This document shows, piece after piece, positions 170 to 42,075 of a stretch of DNA of 64,000 nucleotides. Made by a program: the position numbers and the translations under genes. The notes beneath the pieces are model-generated. The model worked only from the letters and a program-made list of their open reading frames with translations. It did not search any database and was not told the DNA's origin. Each line of letters opens with the position of its first letter. Within the stretch, counting starts at the first letter, position 1. The stretch covers positions 6,016,001 through 6,080,000 of the forward strand of contig CBDETY010000003.1 in assembly GCA_965243025.1 (NCBI GenBank), given 5' to 3'. Source of the DNA: Candidatus Latescibacterota bacterium (lineage in GTDB: Bacteria > Latescibacterota > UBA2968 > UBA8231).

Positions 170-1643
170 CTAATAGGCCATGCCCAGCCCATTGCCCGTC
201 GTTCCGGTGAAATAGTCGACGATCAGCCAGAATCCCCCGGCGACGAACTGCCCGAGGATCAACCCGTAGAACAGGGGCCAGAGCGAGCGGTACGCCTTCA
301 GGCCGCCGTACTTCAGGAGGACGATCTTGAGCAGCCAGGCGAGAAAGACCGGGAACCAGGCGGTGTCCATCACCCGGTCCATGCTGACGACGAACCCGAG
401 AGGGTGCAGCGGCCACCACAGGAAGCGGCGGTTCAGGAAGAGAAGGCCGGCCATCACTCCCGCCCCGGACAGCCGGATGAGCCAGCCCAGCCAGTTCGGC
501 CCCGCGTTCTCGTCGACCCGCCGCCCCACGTACTCCCAGGTGAAGTCGGGCAGACCTTCGACGAAGCGGGCGACGTTCACACCCCCCTCGCGGTAGGTGA
601 TCGACAGCGACATCCAGAAGGTGCTGACCCCGGATACGGCGATGGCGAGGGCGATCGCCAGCAGCAGCCAGCGCTTCCGGCGGGCGATCTCGCCGCTCAG
701 CTTCAACCCGGTGGCGGTGTGCGCCATCATCGTGCTCGCCAGCGATTCCGTCCAGATCACCGTCGGCCCCAGCGCCGCCATCCCCGCAGGCCCCAGGTAG
801 CGCACCCCGATCCCGGAGACCGCGAAATCCAGGGGGATGTTGCGCGGAAACACCATCGGCAGCCCGGCCTCGGCGATGATGCGCGTCAGGCTGAGGAAGG
901 TCACCAGCGCCCCGAACAGGAACAGCGGCCCGGCCCACAGGGGAAGCCCGGCGCGCCACAACCACAGGATCATCACCGCCAGCCCGAGGATCACCCCCCA
1001 CACCGCGGTGCGGTAGGACAGGATCTCGCCGGAATCGTCGACGGATGGGTCGCCGCGGAACGCCTTGCGGAACACCGACCGCAGGTGCCCACGGGCTATC
1101 CACAGGCCGAACAGCACCAGGGCTATCATCGCCCCGATGCTCTGGTGCGCGAGGATTCCGTTTACGCCGCCGCCCCCGCCGTAGCGGGACAGCGCTTCCC
1201 CGATGCCGGCGCCGGTCATGTGCAGCACCCCCTCCTCGAGGCGCCGCAGCAGGTGAAACACCCACATCCCGAGCATGACGTCCGACTTGAGGAAGTAGGC
1301 GAACCCGAGGATCATCAGGTTCAGCGAGAAAGAGGCGTGGGAAACTCCCCGCAGCAGTTGAATGCTCCCGAAATGCCGCGGAACGACAGGGACGAACGGG
1401 AAGTAGTGGTTGAGCGCGTTGAGGCTCTCGCGGCCGAACGAGATCAGCAGCCCCACCCACATCAGGCCCTTCCTGAAAAAGGGGGCCACCAGCCCACCGC
1501 CGGGCGGCGGTTCGACCATCGCCAGGGGGACCTTGGTGATGGGGTAGATCAGGTGTTCGTGCTCCACCCACTGGCGGCGCAGGATCACCATGGCGCAGAT
1601 GCTGACCGTCCACAGGGCCATCATGAACAGCAGCCACCAGAAC
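170..1643 (-). pseudogene. 3' part (~490 aa) of a polytopic membrane protein (DUF6785/DUF6784-like putative transporter), interrupted by the 40-kb element
   Basis: Many hydrophobic segments; motifs WVEHEHLIYPI and WWPLHPLGF. It joins in frame with 42068-42569 after removing the element and one TSD copy (..WLPPLFWW|LLFMMALW..). Family name from recall. Confidence 0.85.
1636..1643 (+). repeat. Left 8-bp target-site duplication ACCAGAAC
   Basis: Identical to 42068-42075; both abut the terminal inverted repeats. Confidence 0.95.
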
Positions 1644-1850
1644 GGGATATATGTATTTAATTACACAAGACAATTTTAGTAATCTGGTCCGCGAATTTAA
1701 AAGAAATCTGGTATATTATAATAGAGAAAATGCAGAGAAATGGACATCCCCCGTCCCACTGTTTAGCCGGGAGATGGGGATGTCGGCTGGCTGGCCATTT
1801 CACATGATTGCCTGCTGATTCCGGAAACCTGCCAGATTGGCACCCTGGGG
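1644..1850 (+). repeat. Left terminal inverted repeat plus ~200-bp subterminal segment
   Basis: Aligns to the reverse complement of ~41862-42067 with scattered mismatches; AT-rich. Confidence 0.92.
1709..1722 (+). promoter_or_regulatory. Inward-pointing extended -10-like element (TGgTATATT/TATAAT)
   Basis: tggtatattataat; the right-end counterpart is a perfect TGgTATAAT. Confidence 0.4.
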
Positions 1851-2448
1851 TCGGGATCGATGCGAGCATCATTTTCTGTGTGCAGGCTGCCCTTGGGGGT
1901 GACCAGAGATCATTCCGTTTGGTCGACAAGATGGCAAGCAGGATGACTGAGGATTCCTCTGGTGCAGGCTGAGCTTACGCGCAAGAAGACGACACCCTGG
2001 ATCGGAGCCACCGCTCTGATGGAGGAGGAACCGGGATTCCTGCCCTGATCTGAATCGGCGACTCGCAGCAGCATTTCATGGCGTTCTCAAAGTCAGGCAA
2101 TCCGCATCCAGCGATGTGTCCGGATTCGCAGGTACCCCTCCCCTGAGTCGGCACCGTGGCTCGAGAAGGCCACCGCTCTGATGGAGGAGAGGATGTGCGA
2201 GCCCCCCCGGAATCTGCAAAGCCGTCGTCGTCGAGGTGAGGAGGAGATCATTCGGTTTGGTTGACAAGTTGGCAAGGCAAGCTGGATCTCATTCCGGCGG
2301 CCGGTGATGCTGACCGGAGCAACGGGGCAGCAGGTCATCTTATCTTGCTGACCATTCGAGAAGATTTTCCCTGCATCCAAACCACAGTTGAGAGTCGATT
2401 CCGTTCCGCCGGCTATGCGCAAGCCGGCAGCGAGATGTCCCTTGCCGA

Positions 2449-3453
2449 CTACTCGAAAAGCTTCGCCCTTTCCTTCGACCGATGGTGCGTGTAGGGAACC
2501 GGAGGAATTTCCGTCGCCAGCAGATCCCGGTAGCTCAGCCGTTTCCCCAGCATCCCTCGAACGAGGTATTCCATCTGATCCAGGAGAGCCATTCCCCGGA
2601 TATTGTACCTGCCGACGATCTCCTTCAGGTAGCGGGAAAAATACTTGGGGGACACGTGCCGGTAGGTCCCGAAAATAACAGCCTTCAACTTGGCCCAGAA
2701 CGCTTCGATGGTGTTGGTATGGGCCTCGTCCCGGACGTATTCGCCTTGTTGGTGGTTGACGACCAGGTGCCTGCCCGGCCATTTCAAGGCCGCATAGACC
2801 GGGGCCTCGTCGGTGCACAGGGTTTCATTTTCTTCCAGCTGACCCTCTACGAAGGGGGCCACGGTCCCGTGATCGGCATGGAAGATCACCTCGGCGGCCG
2901 CCCTGCGGCTTTCCCGGTCTGCCCCTCCGAGCACCTGAACCCTGCCCTTCCTCCAGTTGCGACCGAACTTCTTGTCGGCGTGCCTCTTCTTGTCGTTTCC
3001 TCCGACCCAGGCTTCGTCCACCTCGAGGAACCTGCTGCGCAGCGGTTCGGGATCCGGCCAGCCTTCCCGGAGGCGGTGCAGCATGAACGAGGCCGACCGG
3101 TAGTTGAGTTCGAGTTTGCGGCTCAGCTGCACGGCGTTGATCCCCATCGGGTCGGACAGATACAGCCAGATGCCGAAAGCCCAATTCCGATAGGAGATCC
3201 TGGAGCGGTACAGTACCGTTCCGATGCGCACGCTGAACCGCTTTTGGCAGTCGCTGCACCGGTAGGGCATGGGTTTCCGGCCGGGACATTCCGATATCCT
3301 GCCGTCGCAGCCGCAGTGCGGACAGCGTATGAATTCGGGCAGGCCGTCTACCCTCTTCCCCCATCTGATCTTCTCGATCCATCTCTCTGCTGCTGCATTG
3401 TCTGGAAACAGTCTGTACAAATCAATCAACGAGACATCTTTACCCTTACTCAT
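2449..3453 (-). CDS. IS1595-family (ISXO2-like DDE) transposase, left arm
   Basis: Zn ribbon CPHCG..YRCSDC; catalytic motifs EVDEAWVGG, CTDEAPVY, HTNTIEAFW; C-terminal YLKE..GRYN..GKRLSYRDL. Confidence 0.95.
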   Translation of the reverse strand: MSKGKDVSLIDLYRLFPDNAAAERWIEKIRWGKRVDGLPEFIRCPHCGCDGRISECPGRKPMPYRCSDCQKRFSVRIGTVLYRSRISYRNWAFGIWLYLSDPMGINAVQLSRKLELNYRSASFMLHRLREGWPDPEPLRSRFLEVDEAWVGGNDKKRHADKKFGRNWRKGRVQVLGGADRESRRAAAEVIFHADHGTVAPFVEGQLEENETLCTDEAPVYAALKWPGRHLVVNHQQGEYVRDEAHTNTIEAFWAKLKAVIFGTYRHVSPKYFSRYLKEIVGRYNIRGMALLDQMEYLVRGMLGKRLSYRDLLATEIPPVPYTHHRSKERAKLFE

Positions 3454-4150
3454 CCTTACTGACCTTCGGGCCGTGGAATACCGTACTGGAGACCTGCGGC
3501 CCTCAACAAATAGTGTGATTCACGCTCCCATGGCAGTCCTTTCGGGTTTCGTGGGAAGGTGACTCTGCCGGAATGTCACCGACAGATGGGACTGGGGAAG
3601 CGGCGGTGGATCCTGCGGCTTCCCGTTGCATGTGCCTCTAGTGTAACCGGTTTGAGCTAAACAACCAAATCGGCTTCCGAGTTTTTCCAGAAAATCTCGT
3701 AATGGGGGCGGGAAACTTTAGTCTCTGCAAGCGGAGGAGGGGGGATGGTGGGGGAGGCCGGAGGAGGATCTCAGTCCGTATCGGGTTTCCGGGAGACTCC
3801 GGAACTGCCGGTGGGGTGGCGCTGAGGGATACCATCTGGGGGTGCTGTTCCTCGATGGGAGGGCCTTGCCGACGTGGATATCTGCATCGCCTTCGGTGCA
3901 GGCCGTCGAACGATCTGCTTCGGCTTCTTCCCTGGCATGGTCTTTGCCGAGGCCCAAGACCGGCAGGCTCCATCGGAGGATTCCCCGGTTGCCAGTCTGG
4001 ATCCCACCGGCTCAGGCGGGCGCTGGGAAAGAGGGGTATTCTCCGTAGGAGAATGCAGAGGCGGAAATCGGCACGGTGGATCGGAGTCCCCCGGCTTCTG
4101 AACGAGGGAGGGTGGTCTCAGTCCGGATCGGTGCCTGGGGGATTCAGGGT
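3454..4150 (+). repeat. Non-coding inner part of left arm (inverted homologue of ~39530-40268)
   Basis: Near-identical to the right arm up to ~3820, then degenerate similarity to ~4150. Confidence 0.85.
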
Positions 4151-4333
4151 GTCGAGGGTGCTGGCTGCCCGGAACTACGAGGTGAGGGTATCCCGAAAGC
4201 CTGGCGAACCGGCAAGCCGTGAGTGCCCCCTGGCACGGTCCTTGCAGGACTACGCTGCGAAAAAGGGGGTATTCTCCGCGGGACCCCGCTGAGGGCAGGG
4301 TCCCGTACTCACTTTCACCGCCGTGCCCTCCGC

Positions 4334-7300
4334 CTACTTGAGCAGCAGCATCTTCTTGACGTCGGCGAACTCACCTCCAACCTGGACGCGGTAGAAGTAA
4401 ATCCCCGACGACATGCTCTGGCCGCGGTCGTTGGTGGCGTCCCACTGGACTGCGTAGCGGCCGGCAGTCTGGCGCTCGTTGACCAGAGTCCTGACTACCT
4501 GCCCCAGCATGTTGTAAACCTCCAGCTTCACGTCACCGGCTTCCGGCAAGTCGTACTTGAGGGTGGTCTCCGGGTTGAACGGGTTCGGGAAGTTGTTCCG
4601 AAGCGCGTACACCTCGGGACGGGTCTGAATCCGAACCGAAACCGGAGTGTCCAGACTGTTCAAGCCGTAATTGCCGTCTCTCAACTCGCCGCTGAGGATC
4701 TCGATGTAGCTGTCCTCGATCTCCCTGAGAGAGCGGAATACGAGGTTCAACCCGAGATCGCCCTCGGTGCCTACGTCTCCGTAAGCGACGAGCGACACGA
4801 GACCGTCCTTGTTGGCAACCACATGACCGTCCGCGAACTCGCCGGTACCGAGGATGCTGTTCTCCACCTCGGTGCCTACGTAGGTCAGGAGCTGCGGATC
4901 GTAGCTGACGCTCAACCCGTAACCCTTGAGCTCGGCGAAGTCCTGCAGGCTGACGGCGATGGCCATCTCTTCCCCGACCCTCGGCAACTCGAGGCCGGCG
5001 TCGAGGTAGAAGCGGGCGTCGCTGTTCAGACCGGCCATGAAGTTGGGCAAGCCCTTCCCAACACCCTCGATCTCCCTGCCGAAGAAATCGGCAAAGGTGA
5101 AGAAGTCGTTGAGGTCGATCTTGTTGTTCTGACTCAGGTCGAACGCGGGCTCGAAGGATTCGTCTTCAGCCGTGAGACCGAACTGGTCCGCGAGGATGAA
5201 GAAGTCATCGAAGCCCACCTGGTTGTCCGCCCCGAACAGACCGAAGACGGCCTTGCCGTTGGAGTCGAAGACACGGTTCCGGATCGCCATCGCGGTCTTC
5301 TCCATGATGGTTTCACCGAGGTTGTCCTGGTCGAAGGGGCGGACCTGGTAGGTGTAACGAATCCCGTTGAAGACCATCTGGTCCTCGAAGGAAGTCGAGC
5401 CACCCGGAGCCTCGCCTACGACTTCGTACGCCGCGTCTCCGATCCTGCGGAACACTTTGTATCCCTTAACACCGGCAGTCGTGTAGATCTGACCGCCGAC
5501 AGCCTGTCCGACCGAAGTGGTAACCATGTGGTCATCCGGAGACTTCGCCCAGGAGACCGTTATGCTGCCACCCGCGTCGCCCGGGGTATCCAGGACCCTC
5601 ATGTAAGGAATGGCTCCCGGAGGAATGTTGTCGATCGCCCGAACGGCTTCCGACCGCACTCTCTCGGACAGGTAAGCGTTGTCTACAGCCTTCATCAAGG
5701 GAGCGATCCCCTTGGTGGAGAAGGCAATGGCCTCCGGAGTCAAGGCGGCGAACAGCGGACCGTCCGAAACCTTCGGCTGGACGGCAGACTCTTTGCTCAT
5801 CGCCATCGTCTGAGCCATCACCTCGTAAGGATTGGAGAGGCTCATCCCAGGCATGAAAGCCTGCTTGCTCGCCGGGACCACATACTCGGCGGCAACCTCG
5901 AACGCCGTGGCATCCGAATCGAGAGTCGCTACCACGACCCGCATGAGACCCGGATCGGGAACGGCGTCGACGAACGCCCACGGAATGAAAGCCATGGCGT
6001 CCTCTTCCTGCACTATGCTGCCGTCTTCCCCGAGGACGTGGGTTACGGCGATCTCACGATAAATGCGGTACCCGTCGATGATGTCGTGGTTGTCCGACGG
6101 GTCGAAGGTCAGGAGGACGAAACCGCCCTGGTCGCCATTGCCGAGCGCACCTCTGAAGTCCTCGGCGATGAGGGTATCAGGAGCATCGATCTCCTCGACC
6201 GGCGGTCCGACCGGGGGCCGTCCAGGATCGACGGGGTCACCCTCGACATTGATCACACCGGAGACGCCGTGGATGAAAGTGTCACCCTGCTGCACGATGT
6301 CTCTGACAGTAACAACCATTGTCGCAAACGATGTAGAGAGACCGGAATTGGCGATGAAGCTGCCCGTTCCGTCCCGGATGGGCACATCACCGGCCGGGAC
6401 GATTGCGCCGATCTGGTTGGCCGTGACATTCACGAAACGGCTGTCCTTTTCGCGGACGTTCCCGAACGAGTCGGCGATGCTGACCTCGACAGTGAAGTCC
6501 TCACCCCTGGTAACGGGATCCGCCGGCCCTGCAACAATGAGCTTTGCATAGGCATCGTCCTGAACCAGGACCGTGTCGCGCAACTCAAATGCACCATCGA
6601 CACTTCCGCCCTGCAAGCTGAACACGAGCTTACCGTCGGAAACGGTGTCGCGAATGGCCACCGTCCGCTTTCCGTCGGAACCCCAGCCGTCGTCGTCCAG
6701 AGTGATGACGTTGCCTCCGCCGTCCGGCTGGGAAGCTCCGGGGCTGCTCTTCTCGACCAGATCAACGCCCTGACCGCCGATTACCGTCAAAGTGGCTTCC
6801 TCCCTGTAGAGGAAGGCCGTCTTGTCGTCCTCGGTCTGGGCCTGAAGGGTTACCAACACGACCTTGCCGGCATTGATCATCAGCATCTTGTCGTCGTCAA
6901 GGTCGTCCTTGTTGTCGTCCTTGAATCCCCTCAGCTTGAACTGGTCCGACTTATCCGACTGACCAGCAATCGTGACCTTGAAGTTTTCAGCAGGCACCAA
7001 CTCGTGGTCCTCGTCGAAGGTAAAGGTGTCAGGACCGGCCTGCGTCCAGTTTCCGGCGGCGTCCCTGGCGTCGATTCGGACATAGTACATCTTGCCGTCC
7101 TCGAGACCGGTCACGCTCAACTCGGTAAAGGTATCCTTCGCCAGGCCATCGCCTCCGATGGTCAGGGTGTCGTTCTTGGAGGCATCAGCAGACCCCGGAC
7201 CGAGGTGCTTGTAGATAACGGCCAGGGTGTCAGCGTCCTTGTTCAACTCCACGCTGACATTGGCGCTGGCGGCCCCCAAGGTCCTGAGGTCATCGTCCGA

Positions 7301-9469
7301 CCCGTCCATGATCGGGAACTTGTGGGTGAAGCCGATGTCCTTGAGATCGAGGGTAACGCCGCTTCGCGTCTCCTTCGGCCCTTCGTTTCCGGCAATGTCC
7401 ATGGCGACGAACTCGAAGACGTAGTCCGTCTTCCCGTCCGACAGGAGGGCGCCTTCAAAGCCGTCTTTCCTCGCAACCGTAAACGAACCTGCCGCGTCGA
7501 ACTGGCCGGCGTTGTCGCCGCCTTTGTCCTTCCAAATGTCCACGATATCATTGGCATCGATGTCACCGGCAGGGCCAGCGGCCATCATCTTGCTCAGATC
7601 GATCGCGATTCTGCTGTCGGTCTTCAGCCCTGCATAACTGAAATCCAGCACCTTGGCATCGTCGCTGCTGCCCTCGCTCTTGATTTCCACAACCACGTCC
7701 GGCCTATCCGCAAGCCTGCTCTTCAAGGTGAGCTTGAGCTGACCGAGCGTCTCATTCGGCACGTAGACCGGCGGATTCTCGTCGGCAGGCAGGTCGACAT
7801 CCCTGTTGGGTCCACCGCCGGAAACCCTGTCCCCGCCCAGGGGGGCGTGAACGAGGGTGTCACCACCGTCATCAACCGGCTTAATCCCGGCTATGATGGT
7901 AGCTCCACCGTTCTTGATTTCCGTGACCCCGGTCCCCGCTGCGCGGGAGGCCAGGGACGGCTTCACTCCGTCAACAAGAATAGCCGTGGTGACGGAGGCA
8001 GGATCTACCCCGTCGCCATCTATCGAGAAGCTTGCAGCCGTGTTTCCGGCGCCATCCTGGATATTGGCCGTCAATACCAGCGGCGCATCCGAAAGATCCG
8101 GGTACTCGTTCTCGGCGATAGCGTCCTTGTGCTGCAGGATGGTTTTTCGGGATCCATCGGATTTCTCAAAGTACCCCGAGGCGTCCGCAGTTGATACCTT
8201 GCCTCCTGCCTTTACGACAATTGACCAATCCCCTTGAAGGTTCGTCCGGATATTGCCGTACTCGTCATCGTTCAACTCGATATAGGCAATAAGCGTATCC
8301 TGGATTCCCAGGACGATTCGATCGGTCGGAAGCTTGCCCGCCCCTATCAAGGATACCGCGTCAGCCGAATTGCCATCGGCGTCTACCGTCAAACCTCCGA
8401 GGGCGGTAAACCCTGTTGCATATCGAAGATCAGCCCCTTTGAGCTCCTTGGCGTAACCGAGACCTGCAACATCCACCGCGTGGAAGTCGCCATCCGTTCG
8501 ACCCACAAGAGCCGAAATTCCGTCTCTATCGCCATCCGAACCATCCGTTGCTGAGGCATCTGGCTCGTCAGCATCCATCTTGAACCCAAAACCGTCCTCC
8601 TTAAACGGCCTCGAGAAATGCAGATAATTCCCCTGAACCGGACGGTCGCCGTCAATCTTCATCGAGTTGTCCGAAAGGACTATGGACGAATAGGCAGTTC
8701 CATCTCTAACGACAGCCGCCGCATAAACCTCGTCGTGCTCGCCCATGATTTCAGAGCCCGTCGAGTACCATCTGATCAGGTACCTCGTATCAACGGCTAT
8801 GTTCTTGTGCTTGCTCTCCGCGATCTTGGAATCGTCGATGCCTGTCCCGGTTATAAACAGCGAGTCGGCATCGCCTACCCATTTCCTGTCCGCCTCGGGA
8901 GTGGGAGTATCACCTTCTGCAGGAATATCGTTCCGGTCCGTTCCGCGGTCCGCTGTCCGAAAGGCAGCAAACGGGTTATCGGCACCGGGAGCATCCGCGT
9001 AAGAACTGCCTCTCACCGGGGCATCAATGGTGGCCCCTGTGGTGGTGGCTTCATTGATTATGGCCGGCGAGGCGCCAACAGTGAAAGGGGCTATACTGGA
9101 TGAGGTGCCAAATGCCCCATCGAGAAATGCCGCAGCAGTTCCGCCGCCGAAATTACTGGCGTGTTGAGCAAGCCTTTCTTTGCCCCGAACGTCGTTGTCC
9201 CAACCGCTTTCAACGATCAAGGTGTCGGTCACATTCCCGTCGTTGTCTTTCTCAAGCGCAACAAGAAAGACTGCAACCTCAAGCGCCGGGTCTTCGTCGA
9301 AGTCCTGCACCGTGACATCGACCTGGAAGACGCCGTCGATTCCGACCAGCCCCCCCTTCTTGATGGTCACGCCCTCGACCGTCTGCGCCAGAAGCTCACC
9401 GCTTCCTATCGGGCCCAGACCTACGAGACCCAGGAGCGTCAGGATAATCCACTGTCTGCTACGATGCAT
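4334..9469 (-). CDS. Large secreted acidic surface protein (~1711 aa) with C-terminal dockerin-like EF-hand pair, cohesin-like domain and FlgD-Ig/T9SS type A sorting domain
   Basis: RBS aaggagg before ATG 9469; signal peptide MHRSRQWIILTLLGLVGL..LLAQ; FGADNQVGFDDFFILADQFG..FDLSQNNKIDLNDFFTFADFFG; tail NFPNPFNPETT..SSGIYFYRV..KKMLLLK. Confidence 0.9.
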   Translation of the reverse strand: MHRSRQWIILTLLGLVGLGPIGSGELLAQTVEGVTIKKGGLVGIDGVFQVDVTVQDFDEDPALEVAVFLVALEKDNDGNVTDTLIVESGWDNDVRGKERLAQHASNFGGGTAAAFLDGAFGTSSSIAPFTVGASPAIINEATTTGATIDAPVRGSSYADAPGADNPFAAFRTADRGTDRNDIPAEGDTPTPEADRKWVGDADSLFITGTGIDDSKIAESKHKNIAVDTRYLIRWYSTGSEIMGEHDEVYAAAVVRDGTAYSSIVLSDNSMKIDGDRPVQGNYLHFSRPFKEDGFGFKMDADEPDASATDGSDGDRDGISALVGRTDGDFHAVDVAGLGYAKELKGADLRYATGFTALGGLTVDADGNSADAVSLIGAGKLPTDRIVLGIQDTLIAYIELNDDEYGNIRTNLQGDWSIVVKAGGKVSTADASGYFEKSDGSRKTILQHKDAIAENEYPDLSDAPLVLTANIQDGAGNTAASFSIDGDGVDPASVTTAILVDGVKPSLASRAAGTGVTEIKNGGATIIAGIKPVDDGGDTLVHAPLGGDRVSGGGPNRDVDLPADENPPVYVPNETLGQLKLTLKSRLADRPDVVVEIKSEGSSDDAKVLDFSYAGLKTDSRIAIDLSKMMAAGPAGDIDANDIVDIWKDKGGDNAGQFDAAGSFTVARKDGFEGALLSDGKTDYVFEFVAMDIAGNEGPKETRSGVTLDLKDIGFTHKFPIMDGSDDDLRTLGAASANVSVELNKDADTLAVIYKHLGPGSADASKNDTLTIGGDGLAKDTFTELSVTGLEDGKMYYVRIDARDAAGNWTQAGPDTFTFDEDHELVPAENFKVTIAGQSDKSDQFKLRGFKDDNKDDLDDDKMLMINAGKVVLVTLQAQTEDDKTAFLYREEATLTVIGGQGVDLVEKSSPGASQPDGGGNVITLDDDGWGSDGKRTVAIRDTVSDGKLVFSLQGGSVDGAFELRDTVLVQDDAYAKLIVAGPADPVTRGEDFTVEVSIADSFGNVREKDSRFVNVTANQIGAIVPAGDVPIRDGTGSFIANSGLSTSFATMVVTVRDIVQQGDTFIHGVSGVINVEGDPVDPGRPPVGPPVEEIDAPDTLIAEDFRGALGNGDQGGFVLLTFDPSDNHDIIDGYRIYREIAVTHVLGEDGSIVQEEDAMAFIPWAFVDAVPDPGLMRVVVATLDSDATAFEVAAEYVVPASKQAFMPGMSLSNPYEVMAQTMAMSKESAVQPKVSDGPLFAALTPEAIAFSTKGIAPLMKAVDNAYLSERVRSEAVRAIDNIPPGAIPYMRVLDTPGDAGGSITVSWAKSPDDHMVTTSVGQAVGGQIYTTAGVKGYKVFRRIGDAAYEVVGEAPGGSTSFEDQMVFNGIRYTYQVRPFDQDNLGETIMEKTAMAIRNRVFDSNGKAVFGLFGADNQVGFDDFFILADQFGLTAEDESFEPAFDLSQNNKIDLNDFFTFADFFGREIEGVGKGLPNFMAGLNSDARFYLDAGLELPRVGEEMAIAVSLQDFAELKGYGLSVSYDPQLLTYVGTEVENSILGTGEFADGHVVANKDGLVSLVAYGDVGTEGDLGLNLVFRSLREIEDSYIEILSGELRDGNYGLNSLDTPVSVRIQTRPEVYALRNNFPNPFNPETTLKYDLPEAGDVKLEVYNMLGQVVRTLVNERQTAGRYAVQWDATNDRGQSMSSGIYFYRVQVGGEFADVKKMLLLK

Positions 9470-9519
9470 CTTTTCCTCCTTATTCAGGAATGATTTCCCT
9501 CGACAGAATTCCACGGGCC

Positions 9520-32749: not shown

Positions 32750-33553
32750 CTGTCCGCGCATGTGTTCTCCTTCCGGTTGACGAGGGGTATCTCCGGTGGT
32801 GAGTCCGGACTGGCGACGATGCCGCAGGCGGTAGCTGTCCCCCCGGATGTTGATGGTGGAGGAGTGGTGTAACAAGCGGTCCAGGAGCGCGGTGGCCAGC
32901 ACCGGATCGGGAAAGATCTCGTTCCAGGTGCCATAGCTCTTGTTGCTGGTCAGGATGATGGACTTGAGCGCTTCGTAGCGCTTGCTGACCACTTCGAAGA
33001 GGAAGGTGGCGTCCTGGCGCTCGGGGCATGTAGCCGACCTCGTCCAGGACCAGCAGGTCGGGTCGGGTCAGCGTCTGGAGCAGGACGGACAGACGGTTCT
33101 TCTCGCGAGCGCTGCGGGAGCGGGTGACCAGATCGTGCAGGGTCAGGAAATAGACGCGGTGGCCGCGCTCGATGGCCTTGAGGGCCAGGCCGAGAGCCAG
33201 GTGCGATTTGCCGACCCCGGGCGGTCCGAGGAACAGGACGTTGGTCCCCTGGTGCAGGAAGCGCAGCGTGGCGAGCTCGTCGATGGTCTGTTTGGGCACC
33301 TGGGCCTGGGCGTGGAAATCGAAGCTTTCCAGGGTCCTGGTCGCGGCCATGCCCGACAGTCTCAGGTTGGTGGCCACCCGGCGCTCGAAGCGGTCGGCGC
33401 GCTCGCGGTTGAGGAGCTCATCGATCACTTCCACCGGCAGCTGCTGCTTTTTCTGGCCCTCTTCCAGGACCGTATCCAGCCGTGCGGGCGGCGTTCAGGC
33501 CGAGTATTTCCAGGTGTTCCTGCACGCCGCTCGTAACTGACGGTCGCGCTCAT
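32750..33553 (-). pseudogene. istB: IstB ATPase, frameshifted
   Basis: GPPGVGKSHLA, LLVLDEVGY, LLDRLLHH; frameshifts near the 5' end and ~33025. Confidence 0.9.
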
Positions 33554-34879
33554 GCGAGCACCTCCTGCGACGTTTCGGCGAGCAGGTCCTCATACACCTC
33601 CAGCGACCGGACCTGGACCTCGAGATCCGGATCGGCCGCCCTCGGCGGCGGTGCCGTGAGCGCCCGGGCCGGCTCGGGCGGCCTCTGCTCGAAGCGGGGG
33701 CGCCGTCCTTTCCGTCGGCTGTGCTGCCGGGCCGCTGCTCGCGTGAGCCGGCGGAGGGCGGCGGCGTGCTCGGGCAGGGTGACGGCGGCATGCCCCTGGA
33801 CTCGCGCTGATGACGAGCCACCGGGACGTCGCCCAGATACACCCAAAACAGTTCGCCGACCTCCTCGCCGTCGGGTCGCACTCTCACCGTGCGCCCCACC
33901 GCTTGCGGATCGACGCTGTAGCGGGTGCCCCCGTAACTGATATGACCGTCGGAGGGCACCTGTCGGAATTCGATCGGACGCAGGTCGTAGACCGGCACCG
34001 CGGCCGGCGGCCGCAGGTGGGCGCGCTCCTCGGCGTGACGATCCACCGGTCGGGCCCGGGTGGTGCCGTGCACCCGCACGTTGGCCACCGTGTCGAGCCA
34101 GATCTCGAGCTGGCGATTGAGATCGGCCAGGTCGACGAAAGCGCGGCCTTCGAGGAAGGATGTTTTCACATACCCTACCCCGCGTTCGACCTTTCCTTTG
34201 ACCCGCGGCCAGTACGGAGGCGACGCTACCGGCACAAACCCGTAGTGATGGGCGAACGCCAGGAACGACGGGTTCCAGTGCACGGTGCCGGTGCAGACCT
34301 CGTGCTGATCGACGGCCTGCTTCATGTTGTCGACCAGAAGCTCCGCCGGGATGCCCAGCCGCCCGAACGCCGCACTCAGACAGGCCAGCAGCACCGGCCG
34401 TCTCGAGGAGGTCGTGAAGCGGGCGTACATCATGCGGCTGTAGCCGAGCACGACGACGAACACGTAGAGCTTTCTGCGCGCTCCGGCCACTTCGAGGGTG
34501 CCGCACTCGCCCCAATCCATCTGCGCCTGCTGGCCGGGCAGGGTTTCGAAGGCTCGCTGAGACGCCGGACGAACTCCTGCTTGAGGGGCCGTACGTAGGC
34601 GCGCAGGATGCTCAGCCCGCCCCGATACCCCCGCGCCGCCAATTCCCTGAACAGCACCGTGGCGGGCAGGTCGAAACGTTCCAGACGCGCGCCGATGTAG
34701 TCCTTGTGCGCATCGAGCTTGGAGGCCTTCCGCCGCCGCTTCCCGGCGAAGGGGGTGGCGCGCTGCAGGTGGTTGTACACGGTCTGGCGGCTGACGCCCA
34801 CCTGCCGGGCGATCGCTGCCTTCTTCATGCCCTGACGGGCCAGATAGTTGATCTGCATGGCCTTCTCCCAAACGATCAT
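33550..34879 (-). pseudogene. istA: IstA transposase, frameshifted
   Basis: HTH GVSRQTVYNHL; FETLPGQQAQMDWG; VDNMK; KGKVERGVGYVK; frameshifts ~34560 and ~33800. Confidence 0.9.
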
Positions 34880-35393
34880 CGATTCGAAGCCTTCCCTGTG
34901 TTTGTCGGGGATGTTTTTCAACGGACCATCCCAAAGTACAAGGCACAGCGGAGGCTTCATCAGGGTGGACACGACCGGACCTGAAGGCCCGGCTTCGAAT
35001 CGGCGCGGAAACCGGGCGGAGAGGGGCTGAGAATCACAGTGTGGATAACTTGCTGGAAGACGCTCACACCGGGTTATCCACATCTGAGTCCGGTACCTCC
35101 GAGAGGACGAGCGATTATCTCAGGAGATACGCACCCCGAAGTGTCCAACTTTATATCCGTGATTTTGTCAAAGAAAAAACCGGCGGTGACAGATTGACCA
35201 CGACCCATCCCGGTAGGGGTTCGCGGCTGTGGCTGCTACGGGGCTTCCACTGACAGCATACGGGGCATCGATTCGAACAACGGTGCAACCTGACATGCTT
35301 CCCTGATCCAGAGGAACCCAGCGTAGGCTCGAGCGTCCATGTCGGGATACACGAACCGGTAAACTCTCTCCAGACCTTGAAGTTCCCACGCAA

Positions 35394-38300
35394 GTGATCT
35401 TCAACCGTGCTCCGCGGGACGGGATTGTGTTCGTCCTCTCGCTCGCGGCCCTGACCGCGGCCGCCGAAGCGCAGCCCCCCTGGCCGGCAATGGACTCACC
35501 CCCGCCCCGCGGGCCTGAAACCCCCGCCGGACTCGCCGGGCAGCTTTCCCATGCCCGAGCCGTCCTGGCCAGTTCCTGGACGGCGACCGCGGAAATGACC
35601 GGGAAGACTTCCGGCAGCGTGCGCCTTCTCTACGAGGCCGGGCCCGCGACTCCATCCGGTCCCGCTTCGGTCGAGCCGGTCGCCTTCGATCACCTCCGCG
35701 ACCTCCACCGCAGCTGCACCGTCGGCATTCCCCCGGACAGCGAAGTCGAGATGGAGGTCATCGAAGCCCGCGTCGCGGCTCGAGTCCACGCCCCCGGGGC
35801 GGTTGAGCACTTCGCGGGTCTGGTCCAGGGCCCGGTCGCGCTCGGGGAACGCGGCCTTCTGCGAAGTCAGGAAGTAGTTGCGGTCGGGTTCGGACCCCGG
35901 CTCGACGGCGAGGAACTCACCGTTTTCGACCGCATTGAGGTCGAGCTGCGTTTTTCCACCTCCCGGGGAGCGAAACGGCCTTCCTGGCCCGACAAGTGGG
36001 GGGAACTGCTGTACCGCAACACCCTCGTCAACTACGAGCAGGCGAGGTCCTGGCGTCTCCCGGCGGGTGGCCTCGGGGCCGGCAAGGCAGCCGACGAGCA
36101 GGTGCTGAGCGGCGAGGTGCTCAGGCTTACGGTCCGCAGCAACGGCATGTACAAAGTTACCGGGGCCGACCTTGCAGAAGCGGGCATCGACCTGGAGACG
36201 GTTGTCCCGGAACGCCTGCGCATGCTGTACGGAGGGGGCCGGGTTCTGGGTCTCCAGCGCGCCGTAATTCCAGGTATCATCCGCCGCGAAATCCCGGTTC
36301 TGGTCGAGGACGGCGGCGACGGCCGCTTCGACGCGGGCGACTTCCTGCTGTTCTACGGCGAGGCGACCCAACGCTGGGAGTACGGGCGCGACGCGAAGCA
36401 GTATTTCTGGCGGCAGAATCCCTTCACCGAGGAGAACGTCTACTTCCTCGATACCCGAGCCGAGGTGGAGGGTCTCAGGATGAGTCAGATCAGCGGAGCT
36501 CCGGACAACGGTTCGGCGCGCCGGATCGACAGCTACCGCGAGCGGATCCATCTCGAGGACGACCGCATGATTCGGTTGCTGTGGTGGAGCATAAAGACGG
36601 GTTACGACTGGTACTGGGAGGACTTCGGGGGGAACGCCCGCAACTTTTCCGTGATCGTGCGCGAAGCGGTTCCGGGAACTCCCGTCGACATCCGGATCCG
36701 TTTCTGGGGATCGAGGAAAGCCGTCCACAGGTTCGATCTGTACTGGAACGACGAGCTGGCAGGACAGGTCAGGATGGACAGCATGTTCGTGGCCACCCTC
36801 CGGGCGCAGGCCCCGCAGGGCCCGAAGGAGGGCCTCAATCAGCTGGGAATCTTCCAGCGCGACAACAAGGGGACGCGCCTGGACTGGATCGAGGTCGAAT
36901 TCGACCGCCGGCTGTCGGCAGAGGGGGGCGAGCTGACCTTCGCCTGGCCGCCGTCGGCGGTGCTTGAGAATGAGGGCGCGGTAACGGCGGAGTTTGTTCT
37001 GTCGGGGTTCGCCGAAGAGGGCAAACCCCGGATCTTCGAGATCTCCGCGCAGGGGTGGCCGGGGGAAATCGTCGGTTTCGACTGGGACGGGACCACGGGA
37101 ACCGCGGTCTTCCAGGACCGGTTCGGCGGGGAGGGAGTTCCGCCGCGCTACATCGCCATCGTGCCCTCGCGGTGGAAGCGGCCGGCGGCAATTGAGCGCG
37201 ATGCTCCGAGCAGGTTGCGCACCCGGGACAATGGGGCGGACTACATCGTTCTCACCCATGCCGATTTCCGCGCCGCTGCCGACCGCCTGGCCGAGTGGCG
37301 GGCGGCGGACGACCGCTTCGGACGTATGCGGACGCTCACTGTCGACGTCCAGGACGTCTACGACGAGTTCTCCGGGGGACTGCTCGACCCGATGGCGATC
37401 CGGTCGTTCGTCAACTACGCGGTCGACAACTGGGATCCCGCTCCCTGGTTCATCTGCCTGATGGGTGACGGTACTCACGATTACAAGAACAGCACGGGCA
37501 CCAGCCACCCGAACTGGATGCCGGCGTACCAGGAAGGCATAAGCATGTTCGACGAATGGTACGTGCGCGTGGAAGGAGAGGACCGGATTCCCGACCTGGC
37601 CATCGGCAGATTGCCGGTGCAGTCGGCAACAGAGGCGGAGGGGGTGGTCGACAAGCTGATCTCCTACGACTCGGACCCGGAGGTCGGTCCATGGCAGAGC
37701 CGGGTGCTGCTGGTGGCGGACGACCTGCGCAATCCGTCGAAACTGGACTTCGTGGAATCCTTTTTCATTCGCGACGCCGAGTCGCTGGCGAAGCGCGTCT
37801 TCCCTGCCGACCTCGATCTCGTCAAGCTCTACATCGCCCAGTTTCCGCTCGAGGGGAGCACCAAGCCGCAGGCAAGGGATGCCTTCGTGCGCCGCTTCAA
37901 CGAGGGAGCGCTGATCGTCACCTACCTCGGACACGGGAGCCTCGATGTGCTCGCCCACGAGAAGATGTTCCTGCTTTCAAGAGACGCCGACCGAATCGAC
38001 AACGGCAGGCGGCTGCCGTTCATGTACACCGCCGCCAGCCAGGTCGGGGTGTTCGACGATCCGGACCAGCAGTCGATCCCGGAAGTTCTGATGAACCGCG
38101 CCGACGGCGGGGTGATCGGGTTCATATCGGCCGCCCGGGTAGGCTTCCATACCAGCAACATGTACCTCGCCTGGGAGTTTCACCGACTGATGTTCAGGTC
38201 GGAGGAGAGTAACCTTCCTCTGGGACTGGCGCTGACCATCGCCAAGCAGAACGTCACCGGCAACCAGGACGACCGCACCAACATGCAGCGCTACTGCCTG

Positions 38301-39332
38301 ATCGGCGACCCGGCGTTGCGCCTCGCCAGACCCCGGTACGTCGTCGCCCTCGCGGTGCCGGATTCGGTCCGGGCGCTCGAGGAGGTCCGCGTCGCCGGCC
38401 GGATTCTCGACTCCGACGGACGGCTGGCGGAAGACTTCGCCGGAACCGCCCTCGTGCAGGCGTTCGACTCCACTACGAGGAGCAAGCTGGACGACATCCC
38501 CTACGACCGCGTCGGGAACCCGATTTTCCGCGGCCTGGTGCCGGTTGCAGGGGGCCGTTTCGAGACCGCCTTCCGCGTGCCCAAGGACATCAGCTACAAG
38601 GAGGACAACGGCCGGGTCAGTGCCTATGCCTGGAGTGACCATGCTCCGGCCGCTTTCGGGTCGGTCGACGGCCTGGTTCTCGCCGGCACGGCGACCGGCG
38701 TTTCCGCCGACGAGACCGGACCCGGGATTGCGATTGGATTCAAGGGGAAGGATGGTTTCAAAAGCGGGGACACCATCCCCGGCGAAGCGGTCCTCGAAGC
38801 TGTGATCAGCGATCCGAACGGCATCAACATAACCGGGGAAACCGGGCACGAAATGGAGCTCCGGGTGGACGGTGCGCGCTTCATCGTCACCGAGCACTTC
38901 CACAATACCGGGGACTACCGCAGCGGCCTCCTCGAGTTCCCGCTGCCCGCCATGGAACCCGGTACCCATACCTTGCGTCTCAAGGCCTGGGACACGTTCA
39001 ACAACTCGTCCCAGGTCGAGGCGGAAGTGCGTGTCTCGGAGGCGGAGGACGGGGTGCTTTCCCGGCTGCTGTTCCACCCGAACCCGATGCGGGACAGGGG
39101 CGACTTCACGTACACTCTCGAAGATGCGGCGGAGTCTGTCCGCATCAGGGTGTTCTCGCTCGCCGGAACGCTCGTCGACGAGCTTTCCGGCACGGGGCAC
39201 GCCGACTTCAACCAGGTGGCCTGGACTCCTCCCGGGGAGCTCGCCAACGGCACCTACCTGTACCAGGTAGAGGTCGAGCTCGCCGATGGCTGGCGCATCG
39301 AGAGGAAGGCCGCCATCCAGGTGATGAAGTGA
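35394..39332 (+). CDS. porU: PorU-like peptidase C25 (T9SS sortase family) protein
   Basis: Signal peptide; DYIVLTH..VDVQDVYDEFSGG..DP.AIR.F..GDG..DYKN..IGRLPV..YLGHG..LIGDPA; PorU-type C-terminus (DPNGINITG..GH, HTLRLKAWDTFNNSS, PNPM, LANGTYLY). Ser at the expected catalytic Cys. Confidence 0.85.
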   Translation: MIFNRAPRDGIVFVLSLAALTAAAEAQPPWPAMDSPPPRGPETPAGLAGQLSHARAVLASSWTATAEMTGKTSGSVRLLYEAGPATPSGPASVEPVAFDHLRDLHRSCTVGIPPDSEVEMEVIEARVAARVHAPGAVEHFAGLVQGPVALGERGLLRSQEVVAVGFGPRLDGEELTVFDRIEVELRFSTSRGAKRPSWPDKWGELLYRNTLVNYEQARSWRLPAGGLGAGKAADEQVLSGEVLRLTVRSNGMYKVTGADLAEAGIDLETVVPERLRMLYGGGRVLGLQRAVIPGIIRREIPVLVEDGGDGRFDAGDFLLFYGEATQRWEYGRDAKQYFWRQNPFTEENVYFLDTRAEVEGLRMSQISGAPDNGSARRIDSYRERIHLEDDRMIRLLWWSIKTGYDWYWEDFGGNARNFSVIVREAVPGTPVDIRIRFWGSRKAVHRFDLYWNDELAGQVRMDSMFVATLRAQAPQGPKEGLNQLGIFQRDNKGTRLDWIEVEFDRRLSAEGGELTFAWPPSAVLENEGAVTAEFVLSGFAEEGKPRIFEISAQGWPGEIVGFDWDGTTGTAVFQDRFGGEGVPPRYIAIVPSRWKRPAAIERDAPSRLRTRDNGADYIVLTHADFRAAADRLAEWRAADDRFGRMRTLTVDVQDVYDEFSGGLLDPMAIRSFVNYAVDNWDPAPWFICLMGDGTHDYKNSTGTSHPNWMPAYQEGISMFDEWYVRVEGEDRIPDLAIGRLPVQSATEAEGVVDKLISYDSDPEVGPWQSRVLLVADDLRNPSKLDFVESFFIRDAESLAKRVFPADLDLVKLYIAQFPLEGSTKPQARDAFVRRFNEGALIVTYLGHGSLDVLAHEKMFLLSRDADRIDNGRRLPFMYTAASQVGVFDDPDQQSIPEVLMNRADGGVIGFISAARVGFHTSNMYLAWEFHRLMFRSEESNLPLGLALTIAKQNVTGNQDDRTNMQRYCLIGDPALRLARPRYVVALAVPDSVRALEEVRVAGRILDSDGRLAEDFAGTALVQAFDSTTRSKLDDIPYDRVGNPIFRGLVPVAGGRFETAFRVPKDISYKEDNGRVSAYAWSDHAPAAFGSVDGLVLAGTATGVSADETGPGIAIGFKGKDGFKSGDTIPGEAVLEAVISDPNGINITGETGHEMELRVDGARFIVTEHFHNTGDYRSGLLEFPLPAMEPGTHTLRLKAWDTFNNSSQVEAEVRVSEAEDGVLSRLLFHPNPMRDRGDFTYTLEDAAESVRIRVFSLAGTLVDELSGTGHADFNQVAWTPPGELANGTYLYQVEVELADGWRIERKAAIQVMK

Positions 39333-39433: not shown

Positions 39434-39529
39434 CAAAAGACCGTGCCCGGGCACTCACGGCCTGCCGGTTCGCCCGCTTTCGGGATTGCCCTCGTCTCGT
39501 AGTTCCGCAGCTGCACCTCGACCCGGGCC

Positions 39530-40268
39530 GTTCCTTAATCTCCCGGGCACACCGATCCGGACTGAGATCCCTCCTTGGTCAGAAGCCGGGGCCTCGATCC
39601 CCGGTGCCGATTTCCCAAGGGGGTGTGCAAAGGCAAACGAGAGGATCCTTCGCGAAGAGAAGCCGCGATGCATTCTCCGAAGGAGAAACACCCTGCCTTC
39701 CGCACCCCCGACCGAACGGAAGAAGATCCAGCCGGGCAACCGGGGAGCTTCCGGGGTAACCTGCCTGTCCTCCGCATAGCCTGCAGGTCTCAGCAAAAAC
39801 CATGGCAGAGAAGAAGGGAGGCAGATCGCCCCGACGGCCTGCTCGAAATTCCAGGTGATGAAGGGGTTTCCACGTCGGCGAAGCTCTTTGCCGTCGAAGA
39901 ACAGGGCCACCCCCCGGCAGTTCCGGTGTCTCCCGGAAACCCGATACGGACTGAGATCCTCCTCCGGCCTCCCCCACCATCCCCCCCTCCTCCGCTTGCA
40001 GAGACTAAAGTTTCCCGCCCCCATTATGAGATTTTTCGGAATAACTCGGAAGCCGATTTGGTTGTTTAGCTCAAACCGGTTACACTAAAGGCACATGCAA
40101 CAGGAAGCCGGCTGGATCCACCGCCGCTTCCCAGTCCCATCTGTCGGTGACATTCCGGCAGAGTCACCATCCCACGAAACCCGAAAGGACTGCCATGGGA
40201 GCGTGAATCACACTGTTTGTTGAGGGCCTGGTTTCAACACGGTACTCCACGGCCCGAAGGTCAGTACG
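39530..40268 (-). repeat. Non-coding inner part of right arm
   Basis: Inverted homologue of 3454-4150. Confidence 0.85.
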
Positions 40269-41279
40269 ATGAGCAAGGGTAAGGATGTCTCGCTGGTTTA
40301 TTTGTACAAGCTGTTTCCAGACAATGCCGCAGCAGAGAGATGGATCGAGGAGATCAGATGGGGGAAAAGGGCAGACGGCCTGCCCGAATTCATACGCTGT
40401 CCGCACTGCGGCGGTGGCCGCGACCGCATCCGGGAGTGTCGCAACCGCAAGCCGATGCCCTACCACTGCGGAGCCTGCCGAAAACGGTTCAGCGTGCGCA
40501 TCGGAACGGTTTTGTACCGCTCCAGGATCTCCTATCGGAATTGGGCTTTCGGCATCTGGCTGTATCTGTCCGACCCGATGGGGATCAACGCCGTGCAGCT
40601 GAGCCGCAAACTCGAAGGAGTCAACTACCGGTCGGCTCTGTTCCTGCTGCACCGCCTCCGGGAAGGCTGGCCGGATTCCGAACCGCTGCGCAGCAGGTTC
40701 CTCGAGGTGGACGAAGCCTGGGTCGGAGGGAACGACAAGAAGAGGCACGCCGACAAGAAATTCGGGCGCAACTGGAGGAAGGGAAGGGTTCAGGTGCTCG
40801 GAGGCGCAGACCGGGAAAGCGGCAGGGCGGCCGCCGAGGTGATCTTCCATGCCGATCACGGGACCGTGGCCCCCTTCGTAGAGGATCACCTGGAAGAAAA
40901 TGAAACCCTGTGCACCGACGAGGCCCCGGTCTATGCGGCCTTGACCTGGCCGGGCACGCACCTGGTCGTCAACCACCAGAAAGGCGAATACGTCCGGGAC
41001 GAGGCCCATACCAACACCATCGAGGCGTTCTGGGCCAAGCTGAAGGCGGTTATTTTCGGGACCTACCGGCACGTGTCCCCCAAGTATTTTTCCCGCTACC
41101 TGAAGGAGATCGTCGGCAGGTACAATATCCGGGGGATGGCTCTCCTGGATCAGATGGAATTTCTCGTTCGAGGGATGCTGAATAAACGGCTGAGCTATCG
41201 GGATCTGCTGGCGACGGAGGTCCCTCCGACTCCCTTCACCCATCACCGATCAGGAGAAAGGGCGAGTCTTTTCGAGTAG
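40269..41279 (+). CDS. IS1595-family transposase, right arm
   Basis: Roughly 90% identical by eye to 2449-3453; DDE motifs intact. Confidence 0.95.
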   Translation: MSKGKDVSLVYLYKLFPDNAAAERWIEEIRWGKRADGLPEFIRCPHCGGGRDRIRECRNRKPMPYHCGACRKRFSVRIGTVLYRSRISYRNWAFGIWLYLSDPMGINAVQLSRKLEGVNYRSALFLLHRLREGWPDSEPLRSRFLEVDEAWVGGNDKKRHADKKFGRNWRKGRVQVLGGADRESGRAAAEVIFHADHGTVAPFVEDHLEENETLCTDEAPVYAALTWPGTHLVVNHQKGEYVRDEAHTNTIEAFWAKLKAVIFGTYRHVSPKYFSRYLKEIVGRYNIRGMALLDQMEFLVRGMLNKRLSYRDLLATEVPPTPFTHHRSGERASLFE

Positions 41280-41861
41280 TCGGCAAGGCGACATCTCGAT
41301 GCTGCCTGCCGTCTGGCGCAAAATGGTCAGTCTGTGCCTGTGGAATCCGCCGCATCGTCTCGTCGAGCTGGAGTCGCCGAACAGAAATGACCCCTGCTCA
41401 CCCCGGTGACGACGGATTTGCAGGCTCAGGGGAATCCGCGCATCCCCACCTCGATCCGAGTGGGCTTCCGATCCACGGTGCCGACTTCAGGGGGGAGGTA
41501 CCTGGGAGTCCGGATAGATCGGCGGATGCAGACTGCCTGGCTATTGGGAACGCAATAATATGCTGCTGCTCGTTGCCTCCGGTCAGTATCCTCCGTAGGA
41601 GAATACCCCGTCTTCCGCATCGGTCGAACTGAGTCTGGGGGTGGAAGGCGATCATTTCGAATGGTCAGCAAGGCGACATCCCTGCCGGCTGCCTCCCCTG
41701 TTGCGCCTGAAGCTCAGGCTGCACCCGAGGAATCCTCAGTCATCCTGCTTGCCATCTTGTCGACCAAACGGAATGATCTCCTCCTCACCTCGACGACGAC
41801 GGCTTTGCAGACCCCGGGGGAATTCGCGCATCCCCCTTCCTCGATCCGGGTGGGCTTCCGA

Positions 41862-42067
41862 TCCAGGGTGCCAATCTGGCAGGTTTTTCCGGTCAGCACA
41901 CAATCATGTGGAATGGCCAGCCAGCCGACATCTCCATCTCCCGGCTAAACAGTGGGACGGGGGATGTCCGTTTCTCTGCATTTTCTCTATTATATTATAC
42001 CAGATTTTCTTTAATTTCGCGGATGAGATTACTAAAATTGCCTTGTGTAATTAAATGCATATATCCC
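41862..42067 (-). repeat. Right terminal inverted repeat plus subterminal segment (TGgTATAAT at 42002-41994 on minus)
   Basis: Reverse complement of 1644-1850. Confidence 0.92.
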
Positions 42068-42075
42068 ACCAGAAC
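42068..42075 (+). repeat. Right 8-bp TSD ACCAGAAC
   Basis: Identical to 1636-1643. Confidence 0.95.

Follow-up and report, generated by a model that had tools for sequence, protein, structure and literature searches.

A probable 40-kb unit transposon of IS1595 descent and its relatives in one genus of Latescibacterota

Introduction

When a gene is split by 40 kb of DNA and its two halves still rejoin in frame, the question is whether that DNA arrived in one event, as a single transposable unit, or came together in some other way. The case considered here lies in a Candidatus Latescibacterota bacterium (GTDB lineage Bacteria; Latescibacterota; UBA2968; UBA8231; assembly GCA_965243025.1), on contig CBDETY010000003.1 at positions 6,016,001 to 6,080,000 of the forward strand. 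This stretch of 64,000 nucleotides is the window (G000:C3:6016001-6080000), and coordinates below are positions within it unless a contig is named. The genome, G000, comprises 6.8 Mb in three contigs, the window's own being 6.78 Mb long. The element in question, E1, spans 1644-42067 (40,424 bp). An earlier note on the window gave 1636-42075, a span that counts both copies of the target-site duplication, and read it as an IS1595-type transposon that had inserted as one unit. Our analysis, in which two genomes of the same genus (G001 and G002, the congeners) served for comparison of empty sites and orthologues, leads us to think it likely that E1 is one of several giant unit transposons that descend from an IS1595-family element and form a family restricted to this genus.

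Elements of the IS1595 family are generally regarded as small insertion sequences (ISs) with at most one or two passenger genes. Large transposons of other bacterial families are well known, and size alone is not unprecedented. One published account gives the IS1595 family an N-terminal zinc ribbon (in all groups except IS1016), an 8-bp duplication, ends starting with GG and a single transposase gene (PMC8101967). In a second, the transporter IS (tIS) is described as one pair of ends enclosing the transposase together with passenger genes (PMC11891212). A third describes Tn7560, a transposon of 5,765 bp bounded by 8-bp direct repeats, with two complete 712-bp copies of ISApl4, each with 14-bp inverted repeats; ISApl4 itself has 39 copies in the genome (PMC12561309).

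Results

Both ends of E1 are sharply defined. Two copies of the octamer ACCAGAAC (1636-1643 and 42068-42075) abut the ends of the element; the duplication is exact on both sides, and the site is single-copy in the congeners. At 1644 and at 42067 the sequence switches abruptly from a host gene rich in G+C at third codon positions (GC3) to an AT-rich terminus. The left terminal inverted repeat (1644-1669, plus strand) is 26 nt long and starts GGGATATAT, and the right one (42042-42067, minus strand) is identical to it at 25 of 26 positions. Written as GGGATATATG(T/C)ATTTAATTACACAAG, this 26-nt terminus occurs exactly twice in the window, against an expectation of zero from 100 shuffles. It is conserved across 25 termini from the three genomes, all of which begin GGGA or GGGG. 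In E1 the inverted repeat reaches 205 nt at 91% identity and then continues as collinear blocks of 81-98%, which end at 4228 (left) and 39449 (right).

The interrupted gene lies on the minus strand. Its downstream, C-terminal part occupies 170-1643, where an open reading frame (ORF) at 170-1624 covers positions 156-498 of the Pfam DUF6785 profile and carries DUF6784; its upstream, N-terminal part occupies 42076-42707, where an ORF at 42051-42707 covers DUF6785 positions 1-153. Removal of the element and one copy of the duplication in silico gives a single open frame of 853 codons across the junction, and this rejoined frame aligns as one tblastn segment through the junction in both congeners. 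The DUF6785/DUF6784 membrane-protein family is greatly expanded in this lineage, with matches in all 31 related genomes searched and 50-51 scored DUF6785 matches in each of the three genomes of the genus (about 51 in G000). Because the family is so large in the genus, we sought the orthologues of this particular gene. They are uninterrupted, with 93% (G002) and 92% (G001) amino-acid identity over 484 C-terminal residues. The two flanks of E1, each taken with its copy of the duplication, align at the G002 locus to 1182-1489 and 1482-1779, and so overlap by exactly 8 bp (1482-1489). The G001 locus has the same upstream span and the same 8-bp flank overlap, so that the site is empty in both congeners. 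An exact 8-bp overlap of the flanks at an empty site is the signature of a single insertion event. The earlier note's observation of terminal inverted repeats, an exact 8-bp duplication and a host gene that rejoins across 40 kb thus stands in every part.

The host gene also bears on the age of the insertion. Nei-Gojobori distances among three taxa, a crude method of timing, give its C-terminal half a nonsynonymous distance (dN) of 0.026 and a synonymous distance (dS) of 0.281 on the G000 branch; the ratio of about 0.09 equals that of the other branches and means that the gene has spent essentially no time as a pseudogene, since a pseudogene phase of any appreciable length would have pushed dN up. 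Since the host gene is unrelaxed while the two arm transposases described below differ by dS 0.19, the arms must have diverged well before E1 inserted. The comparison supports a history in which E1 would have moved with arms already unlike, the insertion being much younger than their divergence; gene conversion between arms would only make them look younger. The earlier note had proposed a recent insertion with undecayed gene halves, which fits these values, and an old, stable giant transposon: the arms are indeed older than the insertion, but 'stable' overstates the case, as the interiors of these elements recombine (see Discussion).

The left arm (1644-4228, 2,585 bp) is an inverted copy of the right (39449-42067, 2,619 bp), to which it is related through inverted-repeat blocks. 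Each arm has the 26-nt terminus at its tip; inwards of this follow a conserved promoter-like motif that faces inward, some 700 nt without coding sequence and a transposase gene that reads outward. The left transposase (2449-3453, minus strand) has 334 residues and matches DDE_Tnp_IS1595 (2.7e-29) and Zn_ribbon_IS1595 (7.5e-06); the right one (40269-41279, plus strand) has 336 residues. A third paralogue (16830-17933, plus strand) lies in the interior. Against DDE_Tnp_IS1595 (cut-off 27) the arm proteins score 102.6 and 106.1 bits, and the interior paralogue scores 122.6 bits. For Zn_ribbon_IS1595 the left arm protein scores 26.3 bits (cut-off 25.4) and the right 22.4 bits, under the cut-off. 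Residues C44, C47, C66, C69, D146, D215 and E250 are invariant in all nine proteins aligned, namely both arm proteins, the interior paralogue and six outside relatives, and a 21-residue C-terminal tail is confined in this alignment to the arm proteins. The four invariant cysteines and DDE residues, together with the 8-bp duplication, uphold the assignment to the IS1595 type.

The transposases of the two arms share 90.4% of amino acids and 91.9% of nucleotides, with dN/dS of 0.29. When the comparison is extended to 2,800 nt inward of each terminus, so that it covers the arm and some 200 nt more, identity falls to 81% at ungapped aligned positions. The earlier estimate of about 10% difference therefore holds for the transposase genes and the terminal 205 nt, but not for the whole arm. 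The arm of an unpaired terminus elsewhere in the genome (U1) is as near to the E1 arms, at 80%, as these are to one another; with the arms of the three other giant copies in G000 (E2, E3 and E4) the E1 arms share only 65-73% identity. Termini and transposases fall into subfamilies accordingly, with both E1 arms and U1 in one group and E2-E4 in the other. Paired arms always belong to the same group, as a cognate relation between transposase and ends would predict. E1-E4 all have open transposase genes in both arms, eight in total, for proteins of 331-362 residues. In E4 (arms at G000:C3 1941107-1943900 and 1983200-1986021) the two transposases are 100% identical over 362 codons, and the first 2,800 nt from each terminus are just 85% identical at aligned positions, a pattern which suggests that gene conversion has taken place between the two E4 arms.

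What the arms lack is an inner end. No further copy of the terminus was found in the window at up to 3 mismatches, and a genome-wide scan at up to 6 mismatches gave none inside the element; when the terminal 60 nt were locally aligned with the inner parts of the arms, the scores of 7-9 lay about the shuffle means of 8.5-8.8. Because the inner inverted repeat is missing, the arms are not complete insertion sequences. They are better regarded as long inverted repeats of one element than as two autonomous ISs, a view that we hold as likely along with the unit-transposon reading of which it is part. Two points correct the earlier note here: the arms are not full IS copies, and a third transposase paralogue lies in a conserved interior segment.

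E1 is not alone. A search of G000 with the subterminal motif returned 16 sites, 12 of them beside a GGGA-type terminus, and eight of the 12 termini form four inverted pairs: E1 (40,424 bp, duplication ACCAGAAC), E2 (48,545 bp, CGACGCGA), E3 (34,446 bp, GAACGAGG) and E4 (44,915 bp, CTCGTAGC), the last three duplications being perfect over 8 bp like that of E1. Together they account for 168 kb of the 6.8-Mb genome. The flanks of E2-E4 are contiguous in both congeners, with an overlap of 8 bp for E3 and E4 and of about 6 bp for E2. The congener genes at these empty sites encode an AcrB-type transporter (E2), a GH42 glycosidase (E3) and an ORF without a Pfam match (E4). The remaining four termini are U1-U4, of which U4 is nested within E2. 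For these, no duplication partner abutting a terminus was found within 70 kb, in a search whose start was off by a few bases for two of the four; two exact 8-mer recurrences turned up in that range, neither adjoining a terminus. No solo arm with its own duplication was found among the 12 G000 termini; the earlier note had named arms that occur elsewhere only in such solo form as what would speak against its interpretation.

The family extends to the congeners and, in our searches, stops there: the terminal 207 nt matched only three of the 31 related genomes searched, and those three belong to one genus. Fourteen termini were fetched from G001 and G002, eight of which pair by duplication (three collinear pairs and one rearranged). 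The collinear elements are one of 24.9 kb in G002 (duplication GGTCGATC), which has three to four arm copies, all facing the same way, at a single end; one of 25.9 kb in G001 (AACGCCAC), with one arm transposase; and one of 4.57 kb in G001 (ATCGAGGC), which has 86-nt inverted repeats and a single transposase and is the smallest bounded element found. The last indicates that one arm suffices for a bounded element. The fourth pair shares the duplication ATGCAATC and lies at G002:C1:3233153 (plus) and 958103 (minus) (loci L009/L016), 2.3 Mb apart and in the wrong relative order; this pattern points to a chromosomal inversion, such as would be expected from recombination between two elements. With E2-E4 and three further bounded elements in the congeners, the other copies for which the earlier note had proposed to look do exist, and together with the precise empty sites in both congeners the three further pairs of 34-49 kb support its claim that the whole 40 kb inserted as a unit. 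Two exact-pattern scans of a metagenome collection returned no stretches, a result limited to the collection searched and not evidence of absence. A scan of a genome collection with the right-arm transposase gave 15 loci, the best 41% identical, and possibly left out the records of the window's own genome.

Between their arms, E1-E4 share a core segment at 83-94% identity, which is also present in both 25-kb congener elements. In E1 the core includes three small genes on the plus strand (13056-13656), encoding an XRE-like helix-turn-helix (HTH) protein (13056-13304), whose HTH_3 match at E=5.6e-4 does not reach the curated cut-off, and a pair of short Cys-rich proteins that matched no family (13285-13503 and 13504-13656). 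It also includes a SWIB-DnaJ fusion protein of 165 residues (14594-15091, minus strand), with copies in other core modules, and a RadC-like JAB protein of 145 residues (15850-16287, plus strand). The radC gene has seven copies in the genome, 97-100% identical in amino acids, one in each of the seven core modules: those of E1-E4 and three in a 185-kb region described below. The core transposase paralogue introduced above is 46% identical to the arm transposase; it keeps the zinc-ribbon cysteines and the DDE residues, does not have the C-terminal tail of the arm type, and has a hairpin and a T-run downstream. No IS ends of its own were found. Just upstream of it (16740-16830), CCCATGTACGA or ACATGTACGA occurs four times in 70 nt beside a TATAAT, and these repeats look like an operator array.

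The 185-kb region lies at G000:C3:852184-1036000. Within it are U1, an intact terminus of the E1 type (at 852184), several arm fragments and no fewer than three core modules (at about 872-881, 952-959 and 1023-1034 kb); no matching duplications were found. The region has the look of several members of this family, clustered together and decayed or rearranged.

The best-conserved stretch of the termini, 46-77 nt from each tip, is the promoter-like motif CCGCGAA-TTTAAA...CTGGTATA-T. The left copy (1689-1720, plus strand) reads inward and has the hexamer TATATT; the right copy (41991-42022, minus strand), like most other termini, has TATAAT. It would read as an inward-facing extended -10 element (TGnTATAAT). 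A second copy (12629-12665, plus strand) stands at the head of the conserved core and shares TGGTATAAT with the terminal copies, and a third is found outside E1 at 60085-60121 on the minus strand. A putative promoter in this position, if real, would yield RNA antisense to the arm transposase gene. A promoter and terminator scan of 1500-4500 gave three promoter-like sites against 0.9 expected, none of them decisive. We considered a structured RNA of guide or regulatory type in the arms and dropped the idea because the folding z-scores were -0.06 (400 nt behind the terminal motif) and +0.43 (390 nt upstream of the left transposase); nor did the window yield any Rfam family at gathering thresholds or any tRNA. 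The short palindrome TGCCA-GAT-TGGCA near the termini, which appears as TGTCA-GAT-TGACA in other termini, could be a hairpin or, equally, a protein-binding palindrome.

The cargo of E1 is dominated by very large proteins. Next to the left arm lies a gene for 1,726 residues with a FlgD_ig/Por_Secre_tail C-terminal sorting domain (4334-9514, minus strand); further in are a protein of 3,162 residues in which 19 fibronectin type III stretches are combined with a FlgD_ig C-terminus (19375-28863, plus strand), a dockerin-type domain protein of 296 residues (31568-32458, plus strand) and a peptidase of the C25, gingipain type with 1,312 residues (35394-39332, plus strand; 2.7e-76). The cargo of the other elements is different: Cas GSU0053 and GSU0054 proteins, a WD40 protein and a CARDB protein in E2; type I restriction-modification genes hsdR and hsdM with three WD40 proteins in E3; and an NYN-cold-shock protein in E4. 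Beside the giant fibronectin gene of E1 lies a set of three to four direct repeats (29088-29879; 96-166 nt, 69-95% identical) that code for small proteins. One of two ORFs scanned there weakly matched ribbon-helix-helix and HTH families, below curated cut-offs, and the whole looks like a small, tandemly duplicated regulator-like array.

An IS21-family element is nested in E1 at 32675-35083 (minus strand), with istB at 32730-33434, istA at 33495-34946 and an HTH piece at 34430-35083. A fragment of the istB 3' end at 9832-10263 (plus strand; IstB profile positions 166-203) is an inverted duplicate of 32675-33105 at 95-99% identity. Between these inverted copies of about 430 nt lie 23 kb, with the core and the 3,162-residue gene among them, an arrangement which suggests IS21-mediated inversion or abortive transposition inside E1.

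Two further observations concern the window outside E1. From 59918 to 64000 the G+C content falls to 55-59%; a 52-nt stretch (59918-59969) is 81% identical to part of the terminus, and a gene for an SNF2-type helicase of 1,036 residues lies at 60354-63464. This may be the edge or a remnant of another island. An 86-nt direct repeat, 92% identical, has copies at 49302-49387 and 51549-51634, 2.2 kb apart and probably within two paralogous genes.

Discussion

The unit-transposon reading of E1 implies a simple scheme of movement. A DDE transposase would recognise only the outermost, subfamily-specific 26-nt inverted repeats and pair both ends; everything between them, all 40.4 kb, would be excised or copied and then inserted, and staggered cuts in the target would leave the 8-bp duplication. 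Between the arms, the regulator-like gene, the SWIB-DnaJ and RadC proteins and the third transposase would form the conserved core, and the remainder would be replaceable cargo.

Several points weigh against this reading. The short-read evidence, in the form of assembled contigs, lends it no independent support. A contig was counted as bridging the junction if it reached at least 31 nt into the element; the best of them (13,443 nt, from runs X1 and X4, which may come from the source sample) stops at 1672, 29 nt inside and below that threshold. None of the contigs joins across the element, and no empty-site form appeared, in alignments which spanned at most 20 kb and so could not have shown one, given the 40 kb between the junctions. 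(Small shares also appear in runs labelled as marine and sponge metagenomes, from which we draw no claim about habitat.) The acting transposase may be any of the three paralogues. The two-armed layout is not universal, given the single arm transposase of the 25.9-kb G001 element and the three to four one-way arm copies of the 24.9-kb element in G002. No pair of giants is near-identical over its full length, so a fresh copy-to-copy move of the same 40-kb unit is not directly seen. The internal 23-kb segment bracketed by inverted IS21 fragments weakens the case further. Part of the content of E1 arrived by recombination and not by transposition: the interiors of E1 and E2 are 84-97% identical, far closer than their arms at about 65-73%, which indicates that interiors have been exchanged by recombination. 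Some content may also have arrived after the insertion, although the host gene, with no pseudogene phase to show, speaks against any large share of such late arrivals.

Some of these observations also speak for a different history, in which a small element like that of 4.57 kb in G001, itself a family member with a duplication, inserted here and reached 40 kb in place by recombination or gene conversion and by nested insertions, never having moved as a 40-kb unit. The exchanged interiors, the nested IS21 at 32.7-35.1 kb and the 23-kb segment between inverted IS21 fragments could all be accommodated in this way. We nevertheless consider it unlikely. Such growth would have had to take place independently in four G000 giants and in both 25-kb congener elements, although every one of them already holds the same core; the host gene, having spent essentially no time as a pseudogene, leaves little room for stepwise growth; and arms of about 70% identity would be poor substrates for the double crossover that is needed.

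Compound transposition of the Tn10, Tn5 or Tn7560 kind is, in our estimation, very unlikely. Two autonomous ISs of about 2.1-2.6 kb would have come to flank chromosomal DNA and later moved together by their outer ends. The two inverted arms, each with an intact transposase, have the right appearance, and small (pseudo-)compound transposons formed by IS1595-family ISs are known, Tn7560 being an example (PMC12561309). Neither arm of E1, however, has the inner inverted repeat that would make it a complete IS, and no solo arm with its own duplication is found among the 12 G000 termini. The DNA between the arms is not arbitrary chromosome either, since its core is common to four elements and to three further modules; element genes have a GC3 of 0.69-0.83 against 0.80-0.92 in the flanking host genes; and at the time of E1's insertion its arms already differed by about 8-19%. 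That unrelated repeats were misjoined in assembly is hardly credible: short-read contigs do break inside the terminal repeat, but a perfect duplication of 8 bp, a host gene that stays in frame and an 8-bp overlap at the empty sites of two genomes are not what a misjoin would leave, the same pattern recurs at three other loci, the contig is 6.78 Mb long, and the arms, at only 81% identity, are not repeats that an assembler could collapse.

Among known systems, the nearest to E1 are the passenger-carrying IS1595 elements, the tIS of the ISNwi1 and ISNha5 subgroups. E1 shares with them the DDE_Tnp_IS1595 and zinc-ribbon domains, the 8-bp duplication, ends starting with GG and the unit-transposon plan of one pair of ends and one duplication enclosing all passengers. 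The E1 end GGGAATTAT presumably fits the ISNwi1 type of ISfinder. The E1 family departs from these elements in its size of 25-49 kb, in its conserved non-transposase core, in its inverted arms of 2.6 kb and in having three transposase paralogues in place of a single gene, each of E1-E4 carrying two arm transposase genes and one core paralogue. The tIS entries in ISfinder are a few kb long, up to about 8 kb, and E1 would be several times larger than any IS1595 member known to be listed there.

With Tn7560, E1 has in common an IS1595-family transposase, two copies flanking the cargo and 8-bp repeats; it differs in that its arms are without inner ends and occur, in our searches, nowhere as solo copies with a duplication, whereas Tn7560 is built from complete ISs. 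In these respects E1 would work as a tIS does and not as Tn7560 does. Tn10 and Tn5 also have inverted, IS-like transposase arms and move by their outer ends, with arms that are complete, near-identical and self-transposing and a cargo of a few kb; the arms of E1, in contrast, are 8-19% diverged and by their sequence non-autonomous, and a shared core is present. Tn7-like elements, catabolic transposons of the Tn3 family and the fungal Starships move a variable cargo of tens of kb, with defence or niche genes among it, by means of one recombinase system. Their enzymes (TnsABC, a Tn3-type DDE transposase with a resolvase, and a tyrosine recombinase, respectively) are unrelated to that of E1, and they are not known to have paired IS1595-type transposase arms. 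In the literature searched we found no description of a giant IS1595-family transposon, nor of the combination seen here of IS1595 chemistry, a length of 25-49 kb, paired and diverged transposase arms, a core with a third paralogue and a cargo of defence genes and giant proteins.

A broader proposal, which we offer tentatively and regard as possible but doubtful, is that these elements represent a self-contained class of giant DDE transposon, a bacterial counterpart of the Starships. Its IS1595-derived chassis would consist of cognate diverged arms and an obligatory core, the core being what is needed to move tens of kb, and the class would be the lineage's main vehicle for defence systems and for giant secreted or eukaryote-like repeat proteins.

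In conclusion, IS1595 chemistry appears to move 25-49 kb of DNA in this genus. As the elements carry type I restriction-modification and Cas proteins, WD40 proteins, fibronectin type III giants and a gingipain-type protease, they offer a concrete route by which such gene sets may spread within the lineage. They also provide a natural system in which to ask how a simple DDE transposase handles very long DNA and why three paralogues have been kept, and their arm pairs, diverged and yet co-varying, would make a clean case for the co-evolution of a transposase with its ends.

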